Positions 35-2,881 of a stretch of 6,439 nt of DNA are shown piece after piece. The stretch is taken from the IMG/VR virus record IMGVR_UViG_2695420565_000002; one strand, written 5' to 3'. This stretch comes from a virus. Taxonomy: Duplodnaviria > Heunggongvirae > Uroviricota > Caudoviricetes. The translations under genes were made by a program, and so were the position numbers. Within the stretch, counting starts at the first letter, position 1; every line of letters starts with the position of its first letter. The notes below the pieces were generated by a model. It did no database searches. It had not been told where the DNA came from and was given only the letters and a program-made list of their open reading frames with translations.

Positions 35-88
35 CCTGTTTACCTCTTTCTCAGGAAGTTTAGTCTCCAGGATTCCCGGGGCGGTTCA
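1..88 (-). mobile_element. Left end of an IS3-family insertion sequence (IS629/IS1203-like), partial; rest of element lies beyond the window start
   Basis: Minus strand reads 5'-TGAACCGCCCCGGGAATCCTGGAGACTAAACTTCCTGAGAAAGAGGTAAACAGG-ATG from position 88 downward: a TGA-initiated terminal inverted repeat followed by an SD and an ORF start encoding MTKNTRFSPEV, which I recall as the N-terminus of IS629-group OrfA. Identification is from memory, not a search. Confidence 0.75.
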
Positions 89-560
89 GTAAGGGGGTAT
101 TTGTATTTATTGTCTTTTGTATATTGTCTTTTGTGTTTAGCTGACTTGGCTTATACCCATTAGCCGACTTGGCTAATGTTTTATTAGCTGTTTTAGCTAA
201 TGTTAAGCTGTCCTGGCTAATCCACTGAGAAACCACCTTGTTCACTCCGATTTTCACGCCATCAGCAATGAGGAATTTACGCTCAATAAGCTGGCGCTTG
301 GCAGCGCAAACATGAGTGTGATGAATACCTGTCATGGCTGCTATCTGCGTGTTTGTGAGTCGATCCATCGGCTTATTGAATCCGTATGTCTTGCGCATGA
401 TAGCGAGCATCACCTTCAACTGCCGGACGGTTAAATCAGCCATCAGCAGACTGTCGGTAATCTCGTTAGCAACGCGCATGAAACCATCTTCGGTATCTGC
501 CACGCGATGCTCCACGACCTCCAGTTGAGGCCTGTAATCAGCTAACTTAACGACGCCCAT
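60..560 (-). CDS. O: Lambda O-like replication initiator, N-terminal iteron-binding domain intact; C-terminus replaced by IS-derived codons (truncated by IS insertion)
   Basis: 166-aa ORF; motif LTVRQLKVMLAIMRKTYGFNKPMDRLTNTQIAAMTG resembles lambda O N-terminal domain (LTKRQFKVLLAILRKTYGWNKPMDRITDSQL, recalled). Strong SD AGGAG 6 nt upstream of ATG at 560. Iterons lie inside the coding sequence as in lambda O. Codon 158 spans the IS junction at 88/89, so the last 8 residues and the stop (62..60) are encoded by the IS inverted repeat. Confidence 0.8.
   Translation of the reverse strand: MGVVKLADYRPQLEVVEHRVADTEDGFMRVANEITDSLLMADLTVRQLKVMLAIMRKTYGFNKPMDRLTNTQIAAMTGIHHTHVCAAKRQLIERKFLIADGVKIGVNKVVSQWISQDSLTLAKTANKTLAKSANGYKPSQLNTKDNIQKTINTNTPLLNRPGNPGD
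98..136. repeat. AT-rich region of the replication origin, with a 13-bp direct repeat TATTGTCTTTTGT at 108..120 and 122..134
   Basis: Directly visible; strongly T-rich on the plus strand, immediately flanking the iteron array, matching the iterons-then-AT-rich layout of ori-lambda when read in the O coding direction. Confidence 0.55.
137..220. repeat. Origin iterons: four imperfect 17-18 bp dyad-symmetric repeats (TTAGCyGnyTTrGCTAA)
   Basis: Copies at 137..153 TTAGCTGACTTGGCTTA, 160..176 TTAGCCGACTTGGCTAA, 184..200 TTAGCTGTTTTAGCTAA, 203..220 TTAAGCTGTCCTGGCTAA; spacing 23, 24, 19 bp; embedded in the O-like gene. Confidence 0.7.
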
Positions 561-708
561 GTTTCACTCCTGCTTTGGCTAGTCTGTAAACACCAACAAG
601 GCGTTCTACGAACGCCCTGTTATTTGCTGCGGCTACCACTAATCCCTCAGGTGAATCAGGGTGTCGAATCTCTTCTTTTTCCTGGTATTTCTTACGACGT
701 TTTGTCAT
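547..708 (-). CDS. Small basic hypothetical protein (53 aa) between cII and O, not in the supplied ORF track
   Basis: ATG at 708..706 preceded by AGGAG with 5-nt spacer; translation MTKRRKKYQEKEEIRHPDSPEGLVVAAANNRAFVERLVGVYRLAKAGVKHGRR; stop TAA at 549..547 overlaps the first codons of the O-like gene, suggesting translational coupling. No homolog recognised. Confidence 0.4.
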   Translation of the reverse strand: MTKRRKKYQEKEEIRHPDSPEGLVVAAANNRAFVERLVGVYRLAKAGVKHGRR

Positions 709-717
709 AATTACTCC

Positions 718-785
718 TGTAGATTGATCCAGTCTTTCTACATCAGGCCTCGAAGAATTCGCCGTTCTTCGGGGCTTTTTCTTTT
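718..785 (+). ncRNA. Candidate OOP-like antisense RNA ending at an intrinsic terminator inside the cII 3' end
   Basis: Plus-strand hairpin with 11-bp stem 747..757/765..775 (one G-U pair), 7-nt loop, then TTTTTCTTTT 776..785; antisense to the last about 40 nt of cII. Possible extended -10 TGtCATAAT at 703..711. The 5' end is a guess. Confidence 0.4.
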
Positions 786-1024
786 GTCAGGTAATCGGCA
801 AGCCGCTTAGTCAATTCAGCCATTTCATCGTCTTCGATTCCGTATTCCAGAACAGCAAGCATCATGCTTACCTGCGAGAAGAAACCATTCTTCCATCGGC
901 TTACCTGATATTCAGGAACCCCCATTGCTCGAGCGAATGTCTTCTGCCCCATCAGTGCCAGTTTGTTCAGCAAGGCCGACTCGATGCGAGCCGCTTTCTT
1001 GCTTTTAGTTGCAATAGTACCCAT
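743..1024 (-). CDS. cII: Transcriptional activator CII (lambda cII homolog)
   Basis: 93 aa; RIESALLNKLALMG...QVSRWKNGF...FSQVSMMLAVLEYGIEDDEMAEL parallels lambda CII (RIESALLNKIAMLG...QISRWKRDWIPKFSMLLAVLEWGVVDDDMARL, recalled). SD AAGGA 8 nt upstream; located downstream of cro and nutR as in lambda. Confidence 0.9.
   Translation of the reverse strand: MGTIATKSKKAARIESALLNKLALMGQKTFARAMGVPEYQVSRWKNGFFSQVSMMLAVLEYGIEDDEMAELTKRLADYLTKEKAPKNGEFFEA
747..785 (+). terminator. Rho-independent terminator, antisense to cII 3' end
   Basis: GCCTCGAAGAA-ttcgccg-TTCTTCGGGGC followed by TTTTTCTTTT. Confidence 0.7.
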
Positions 1025-1140: not shown

Positions 1141-1356
1141 TTAAGCGGCTTTGTGTTCCGGCGGGAACACGTCATCAAGACTGACTTTTGCGCCTAACTT
1201 GTTTAGGCACTCAACAAGAGCACGGCATGTTTTAAGGTCTGGGAAGCGACGACCAGATTCCCAATGTCCGATAGCTCCCTGTGTGCATCCAACTGCCTTA
1301 GCAAGTGTTGTTTGAGAGATATTCAGTGACTCTCGATATTTTCGTAGGTTGCTCAT
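1141..1356 (-). CDS. cro: Cro-like HTH repressor (71 aa), non-lambda immunity type
   Basis: ATG at 1356 preceded by GGAGG (4-nt spacer). [26 protein letters not shown] resembles the cI HTH in this window ([23 protein letters not shown]). Divergent from cI across an operator region. The track's longer ORF begins at a TTG inside the predicted pR -10 and is not used. Confidence 0.8.
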
Positions 1357-2548: not shown

Positions 2549-2881
2549 ATGGATGCACAAACACGCCGCCGCGAACGTCGCGCAGAGAAACAGGCTCAAT
2601 GGAAAGCAGCAAATCCCCTGTTGGTTGGGGTAAGCGCAAAACCAGTTAACCGCCCTATTCTCTCGCTGAATCGCAAACCGAAATCACGAGTAGAAAGCGC
2701 ACTGAATCCGATAGACCTTACAGTGCTGGCTGAATACCACGAACAGATTGAAAGCAACCTGCAACGTATTGAGCGCAAGAATCAGCGCACATGGTACAGC
2801 AAGCCACGCAGTGAAATGGGTGTGACCTGTTCAGGCCGCCAGAAGCAACGCGGAAAATCAATTCCAGCTTATTACGATTGA
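2549..2881 (+). CDS. N: Antitermination protein N
   Basis: 110 aa beginning MDAQTRRRERRAEKQAQWKAANPLLVGVSAKPVNRPILSLNRKPKSRVESALNPIDLTVLAEYH, matching lambda N from memory, including the arginine-rich boxB-binding motif; AGGAG SD; downstream of nutL. Confidence 0.95.
   Translation: MDAQTRRRERRAEKQAQWKAANPLLVGVSAKPVNRPILSLNRKPKSRVESALNPIDLTVLAEYHEQIESNLQRIERKNQRTWYSKPRSEMGVTCSGRQKQRGKSIPAYYD

Follow-up and report, generated by a model that had tools for sequence, protein, structure and literature searches.

A predicted short OOP antisense RNA of the P22/BTP1 type opposite the cII 3' end of a lambdoid prophage

The window, by which we mean the whole stretch of 6,439 nucleotides that was analyzed (IMG/VR virus record IMGVR_UViG_2695420565_000002), holds the early and immunity region of a lambdoid phage, read leftward; its plus strand corresponds to the strand on which lambda makes OOP. 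The ORF list and Pfam matches identify the following genes.

60-560, minus strand: O-like replication gene (ORF; Pfam Phage_rep_O, E = 2e-33)
547-708, minus strand: 53-aa ORF situated between the O-like gene and cII; begins within the predicted oop promoter
743-1024, minus strand: cII, 93 aa, the putative antisense target (ORF; Pfam Phage_CII, E = 4e-30)
about 1141-1356, minus strand: cro-like HTH gene (ORF; Pfam HTH_3)
ORF end at 2126, plus strand: cI-like repressor gene (ORF list)
2549-2881, plus strand: N-like gene (ORF list)

The 53-aa ORF was not matched in the Pfam search. Its positional counterparts are orf27 in ST104 and orf48 in P22, and related phages annotate a hypothetical protein. 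A cII gene identical to that of the window is found on a GTDB contig of Escherichia sp. E1V33, which ends within the oop region.

Several other elements were noted in this region. The plus strand opposite the first cII codons carries the repeat TTGC-N6-TTGC (TTGCTTTTAGTTGC, 999-1012), which we take to be the classic CII-binding repeat at the -35 region of pRE, the repressor-establishment promoter; P22 records annotate an equivalent site. The protein of the N-like gene starts with MDAQTRRRERRAEKQAQWK / MDAQTRRRERRAEKQAQWKAANPLL and in this part presumably resembles lambda N with its arginine-rich motif. A lambda-like N beside a P22/BTP1-type cII and oop illustrates the usual mosaicism of lambdoid phages. 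A perfect GC-rich hairpin of 8 pairs (2157-2178), about 30 nt past the stop codon of the cI-like gene, has a T-rich tail on each strand and resembles a terminator acting in both directions, placed between cI and the leftward genes that follow.

The far end of the replication region is disrupted. An IS3-family insertion sequence contributes its terminal 88 bases to the window (positions 1-88, junction 88/89). They are 100% identical to many E. coli copies annotated as 'IS3 family transposase', and in related E. coli prophages the match to the window begins at base 89. An ORF inside the element (34-2, minus strand), starting MTKNTRFSPEV, presumably resembles IS629/IS1203. The O-like gene is broken after about codon 157, and its ORF stops inside the IS. 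Because the element interrupts this gene, the prophage is probably replication-defective, and the circuit discussed below may have lost its biological importance in this host. The remaining part of the O-like gene contains four iteron-like direct repeats at about 138-225 (TTAGCTGACTTGGCTTA, TTAGCCGACTTGGCTAATG, TTAGCTGTTTTAGCTAATG and TTAAGCTGTCCTGGCTAATCC), in the place occupied by the ori iterons in lambda. The terminator scan also gave a match at 158-178, which is more likely to be one of these repeats than a terminator.

Between the 53-aa ORF and the end of cII, and extending into both, we recognized the following features.

683-688, plus strand: weak -35-like TGGTAT, read from the sequence; 17-nt spacer to the -10, 2 of 6 matches to TTGACA
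703-711, plus strand: extended -10 TGTCATAAT with the hexamer CATAAT at 706-711, identical to lambda pO
713-718, minus strand: Shine-Dalgarno AGGAGT of the 53-aa ORF (ACTCCT on the plus strand), read from the sequence; adjoins the 5' end of the predicted oop RNA
717-732, plus strand: LexA-box-like CTGT-N8-CCAG (CTGTAGATTGATCCAG), a pattern match; overlaps the predicted transcription start
719-784, plus strand: predicted oop RNA of about 63-66 nt (alignment with lambda, P22C-oop, covariance model, identity with BTP1)
about 719-741, plus strand: 5' stem-loop GUAGA..GAU...GUC..UCUAC, from folds; lies between the cII stop codon and the 53-aa ORF
745-777, plus strand: terminator hairpin of 14 pairs (11 Watson-Crick and 3 G-U) with a 5-nt loop (terminator scan, folding)
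776-785, plus strand: T-run TTTTTCTTTT, conserved in all alleles; the other strand encodes K-E-K of cII

In the consensus scan, the hairpin at 745-777 is the best terminator-like site of the window, with the tail TTTCTTTTGT. The original prediction had proposed a strong terminator with an 11-bp stem on the strand opposite cII, overlapping its last codons. Such a terminator is indeed present; the 11 bp correspond to the Watson-Crick pairs among the 14, and the hairpin spans the last 11 codons (...APKNGEFFEA) and the stop codon. The segment 715-790 folds with -28.2 kcal/mol (z = -4.8), and none of 200 shuffled sequences was as stable; in this fold the 5' stem-loop extends over 718-742. A covariance model of the window-type RNA finds a single match in the window, at 719-790 on the plus strand, with 106 bits. 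The predicted RNA has the plan of two stem-loops, the second forming a rho-independent terminator, and a U-run. With the RNA at 719-784 on the plus strand, cII at 743-1024 on the minus strand and the cII stop codon at 743-745, the RNA would be complementary to about the last 42 nt of cII (including the stop codon), and the terminator lies within this part of the gene.

The RNA is expected to begin either at G719, from homology to lambda OOP, or at G722, as in the P22 product found by RNA-seq, and to end within the U-run, at about 784 according to the same P22 product. We take the 5' end of lambda OOP to be the G that follows ACTCCT. A bidirectional role of the hairpin, stopping rightward transcription as well, was considered and rejected, as a T-run is missing when the minus strand is read and the scan gives the site for the plus strand only; rightward transcription into the replication genes would therefore not be stopped.

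The extended -10 that had been suggested at 703-711 is present as TGTCATAAT, the only occurrence of TGNYATAAT in the window. As 0.53 such motifs are expected by chance, we rejected it as stand-alone evidence for a promoter; its significance derives from homology to lambda pO and not from the motif count. The two sequences have TTTGTCATAAT-ACTCCTGT in common, and more than 120 viral loci share it. As had also been pointed out, the 53-aa ORF on the minus strand begins within this -10 (start codon CAT, 706-708). The same is true for lambda, where CAT of the pO -10 is the start codon of O, with the same Shine-Dalgarno arrangement upstream of O. Since both the -10 and ACTCCT are also needed for translation of the 53-aa ORF, as its start codon and ribosome-binding site, their conservation may in part be unrelated to promoter function. 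In every allele, the spacing between the -10 hexamer and the conserved 5' block is constant. Erwinia phage 49 has TATAAT as its hexamer, and its small ORF is annotated as starting 4 nt further upstream; if the annotation of this record is followed, the -10 has been retained there although it is no start codon.

The -35 region is less convincing. With only 2 of 6 matches to TTGACA, the promoter would depend on its extended -10. At the position of TGGTAT, P22 has TGGTCA, which forms the first six bases of the annotated P22 'promoter oop' (585-613 in our locus L002). Upstream of about 699, the promoter of the window is of the ST104/HK544 type, whereas the RNA evidence belongs to the P22/BTP1 type. 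This upstream module with its weak -35 is the main remaining uncertainty, and transcription from it is predicted.

For comparison with lambda, positions 37900-39200 of its genome were fetched and the oop strand was read directly against the window. Direct reading, folds of the individual sequences and a model-fitted alignment replaced two MAFFT alignments, a pairwise one with lambda, in which the register had slipped, and one of the short-class RNAs, in which the stem arms were misaligned. Window positions 701-733 (TTTGTCATAATTACTCCTGTAGATTGATCCAGT) agree with lambda (TTTGTCATAATGACTCCTGTTGATAGATCCAGT) in 30 of 33 bases; this stretch covers the -10 of pO and 15 nt at the 5' end of OOP. For the transcribed 5' end alone, GTAGATTGATCCAGT in the window and GTTGATAGATCCAGT in lambda, the agreement is 13 of 15. 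Past GATCCAGT, window and lambda diverge completely.

Both RNAs are antisense, start between cII and the next rightward gene and terminate inside the cII 3' end. They also have in common the extended -10 TGTCATAAT placed over the start codon of the rightward gene, the first approximately 15 nt (GUnGAUnGAUCCAGU) including the CTGT-N8-CCAG box, and the plan of two stem-loops followed by a U-run. They differ in length (77 nt in lambda versus about 63-66 nt in the window) and in the 3' two-thirds, which are unrelated in sequence and include the closing half of the 5' stem as well as the terminator. Moreover, cII is followed by O in lambda and by the 53-aa ORF in the window. The overlap with cII is about 42 nt in the window and presumably about 55 nt in lambda, as calculated from the coordinates of lambda OOP and the end of lambda cII. 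The original prediction had expected an analogous regulator with a different sequence. This description holds for the 3' two-thirds of the RNA, but not for the promoter and the first approximately 15 nt, which are homologous to their lambda counterparts.

Closer relatives are found in Salmonella phages. OOP-BTP1 has been annotated from the transcriptome of prophage BTP1 (Salmonella Typhimurium D23580) as an RNA that takes the position of lambda OOP and runs antisense to the 3' end of cII (Owen et al., 2020, PMC7067206). The BTP1 sequence is identical to window positions 722-790, scores 104.7 bits with the window-type covariance model, and belongs to a cII gene of equal length. It has T at the third transcribed position versus A721 in the window, and ACCCCT versus ACTCCT in the Shine-Dalgarno stretch just upstream of the start. 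Further upstream, BTP1 continues with TGGCATAAT and has the small ORF and -35 region of the P22 type, in contrast to the ST104/HK544-type region of the window. No transcript coordinates for OOP-BTP1 were present in the supplements of Owen et al. that we searched, so that the connection with BTP1 is based on the identical sequence and on the positional description in the paper.

For P22, GenBank record OQ031658 annotates a 'promoter oop' and a 'terminator oop', both 'similar to phage lambda', in the corresponding place over the end of c1. A 63-nt RNA, P22C-oop, was recovered in a small-RNA-seq study of 2026, in infected samples only (PMC13397905); the original description of P22 oop is by Backhaus and Petri (1984), as cited there. 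The first 30 nt of P22C-oop are identical to window positions 722-751, and its end lies in the U-run. In window coordinates the product extends from about 722 to 784, which fits the 65-80 nt and the 3' end near 783-785 that had been predicted from the window. P22 oop and the window have the 5' 30 nt, the base of the terminator stem, the U-run and the position relative to c1 (the P22 cII) in common. They differ by paired substitutions in the upper terminator stem and in the loop, with one A/C mismatch in P22, and the C-terminal residues of CII are PQDCGNSFEA in P22 versus APKNGEFFEA in the window.

BLAST against phage records found the segment in 230 records, mostly of P22-like and lambdoid phages of Salmonella and Escherichia. 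When viral contigs were scanned for the conserved pO block, at least 120 loci were obtained, with four 3' modules behind one 5' block: the 77-nt module of lambda, a second 77-nt module, the module of the window, BTP1, HK620 and ST104, and that of P22. More distant alleles are present in Erwinia phage 49 and Enterobacter phage MII_001. The oop arrangement is also kept at cII loci of Lonsdalea, Pantoea and Atlantibacter, which were found via the protein and not via the motif. All alleles fold into a 5' stem-loop and a long terminator hairpin, followed by a U-run.

The comparison also bears on the mosaic structure of these phages. The pO/oop 5' block of about 33 bp (701-733 in the window; loci L004-L123) is a mosaic joint, behind which at least four unrelated 3' modules are found. 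The upstream modules joined to it are likewise unrelated (lambda O, P22 orf48 type, ST104 orf27 type), and the block may act as a recombination linker between immunity and replication modules. In Enterobacter phage MII_001 (L128, 292-348) and Atlantibacter sp. RC6 (L134), the terminator base and the U-run are kept together with a different 5' part (GATGTGTTGGCGTAACACAGTGTGATC type) that lacks the CTGT-N8-CCAG box. This part looks like a fifth oop 5' module, which may lie outside LexA control.

In order to describe the conservation of the RNA structure, a covariance model was built from the window-type RNA and nine distinct short-class sequences were aligned to it. In this alignment, which is fitted to the model and represents no more than about five independent hairpin alleles, standard pairing is seen in 97.4% of cells, versus 30-57% with slid partners. 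Seven of the 22 pairs change on both sides, six of them among the 14 terminator pairs. The terminator stem is paired in 97.6% of cells and helix 1, the 5' stem-loop, in 97%. In the Erwinia/Pantoea type, one pair of the 5' stem-loop is changed on both sides (G-C to A-U) and two are changed on one side only. The alleles come from seven enterobacterial genera, and the terminator stem is kept among them by compensatory changes, as required by the original prediction, which depended on conservation of the hairpin in related phages.

Two further observations are independent of the model-fitted alignment. The cII residues encoded by the hairpin differ between window and P22 at 6 of 10 positions, with pairing kept. 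In Atlantibacter, a change of G752 to T, which replaces Phe by Leu in CII, is matched by a change of C770 to A in a synonymous Pro codon, converting G-C to U-A. As the tails of window and P22 differ and still pair, and as the Atlantibacter swap is compensated, the comparison argues that the RNA structure itself is under selection, and not the protein alone.

Together, the anatomy of the locus, its homology to lambda, P22 and BTP1, and the evolutionary conservation of structure, all of which were observed directly, bear out the original prediction of an OOP-type antisense RNA that starts just past 703-711 and ends inside the cII 3' end. We are confident that positions 703-785 of the plus strand hold the oop gene of a lambdoid prophage together with its promoter pO, and that the gene is of the short P22/BTP1 type. 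Judged by sequence, position, promoter homology, homology of the 5' sequence, terminator and architecture each place the predicted RNA in the lambdoid pO-oop family. The one deviation is the length of 77 nt that is typical of OOP from lambda and Stx phages, compared with a predicted 63-66 nt in the window and 63 nt in P22. This length is a mark of the lambda allele rather than of the family as a whole, given that the literature treats P22 oop and OOP-BTP1 as oop.

The allele is thus the short form, already known from P22 and BTP1 of Salmonella, of the lambdoid oop antisense RNA, which in lambda lowers expression of the lysogeny activator cII. Its RNA-coding sequence equals that of OOP-BTP1 and comes close to P22 oop, which has been both annotated and detected. 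As far as its predicted sequence goes, the RNA of the window is the same molecule as the reported OOP-BTP1, apart from the third transcribed base. Annotation of the gene is nevertheless sparse: among the related GenBank records listed by BLAST, an oop feature is annotated only in one P22 record and in the HK633 records. An Rfam scan of the window gave no family match at E <= 1, and a control scan of the lambda oop region gave no relevant family either. As even the oop gene of lambda is unmatched, Rfam 15 has no OOP model, and the empty scan of the window is uninformative.

We considered three other explanations, which even when taken together are unlikely. The terminator might be real, but only stop stray leftward (plus-strand) transcription originating in the replication region or the IS element, shielding cII-cro from antisense read-through, with no discrete oop RNA made from this promoter variant. 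The weak -35 (TGGTAT), the IS3-family element about 600 nt upstream and the upstream module, which differs from the types with RNA evidence, would all fit such a role. We still consider it very improbable, as the extended -10 is separated from the conserved 5' block by exactly the same distance as in lambda pO and is kept with several unrelated upstream modules, as RNAs starting just past the -10 have been found in P22 and annotated in BTP1, and as the 5' stem-loop shows a compensatory change for which a bare terminator would have no need. Compensatory change also speaks against the idea that only rightward coding and translation needs are conserved, namely the C-terminal cII codons and the signals of the 53-aa ORF, with the hairpin as a by-product or as a stabilizing 3' structure of the cII message. 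It is true that the hairpin lies wholly inside cII codons, that the T-run corresponds to Lys-Glu-Lys, and that CATAAT and ACTCCT also provide a start codon and a Shine-Dalgarno sequence. However, coding needs alone would hardly explain why pairing is retained between window and P22 while 6 of 10 hairpin-encoded residues differ, or why an amino acid change on one arm in Atlantibacter has a synonymous match on the other. Erwinia phage 49 keeps the -10 (TATAAT) without the start codon, and transcripts have been detected in P22 and BTP1, so that we give this explanation almost no weight.

Finally, the RNA might be made and have its main role elsewhere than at cII, in replication via pO, in translation of the 53-aa ORF or O, or on a host target in trans. 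Its 5' end adjoins the Shine-Dalgarno sequence of the 53-aa ORF, reviews describe an importance of pO in replication control and further effects of OOP (PMC12197685, PMC3985674), and the RNase III cuts in lambda fall outside cII (PMC5869508). Yet the present evidence points to no target other than the perfectly complementary cII 3' end, and the overlap with cII is constant in all alleles, whereas the downstream gene varies (O or one of several small ORFs). A main role of this kind is accordingly hardly to be expected, and an oop RNA directed at cII is the reading that we retain.

For such an RNA, the following course of events would be expected. RNA polymerase would start at about G719 from the extended -10 promoter and stop in the U-run near 784. 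The resulting RNA, 63-66 nt long, would fold into a 5' stem-loop and a long terminator hairpin. As for any cis-antisense RNA, this product would be perfectly complementary to its target because it is made from the opposite strand, in this case to the last approximately 42 nt of the cII message and the next approximately 24 nt, up to the ribosome-binding site of the next gene. Lambda OOP lowers cII through RNase III-dependent cleavage of the duplex and favors lytic growth (PMC5869508, PMC12197685); the relation between OOP, RNase III and cII in lambda goes back to Krinke and Wulff (1987, 1990), as cited in PMC7067206, PMC5869508 and PMC12197685. By analogy, the duplex of OOP and mRNA would be cut in an RNase III-dependent manner, the cII message would decay, and the lower level of CII would shift the phage towards lytic growth. 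In the literature found, RNase III dependence and the effect on CII are described only for lambda, and we infer them for the short alleles.

Control of the promoter by LexA is suggested by the CTGT-N8-CCAG box over the start site, although 0.30 occurrences of this pattern are expected per window. At the place of CTGTAGATTGATCCAG, lambda has CTGTTGATAGATCCAG, of the same form. The box lies in the block that is conserved between all major classes, and is absent from the Enterobacter MII_001 and Atlantibacter alleles. A LexA-binding sequence has been reported within lambda oop-pO, in a statement that gives no position (Hayes et al., 2018, PMC5869508, citing Lewis et al., 1994). The box at 717-732 may be the counterpart of this lambda site, in which case LexA would repress the promoter until DNA damage occurs.

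A wider role can also be envisaged, though we think it unlikely: the short OOP might be an SOS-induced RNA that in addition gates translation or stability of the message for the small ORF and the replication gene. This idea arises because the intergenic 5' stem-loop ends one base from the ribosome-binding site of the small ORF and because the LexA-like box is kept. If it were true, DNA damage would be coupled to both cII shut-off and the replication module, and the role would be new for P22-like phages.

As OOP is a textbook phage antisense RNA, the value of the finding as a discovery is small. It has a modest value for annotation, and the comparative set could seed a covariance model for OOP. 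This set comprises four 3' modules on one conserved 5' block, with compensatory changes within the cII coding sequence, and provides a clear case of an RNA structure that constrains the C-terminal codons of a protein gene.
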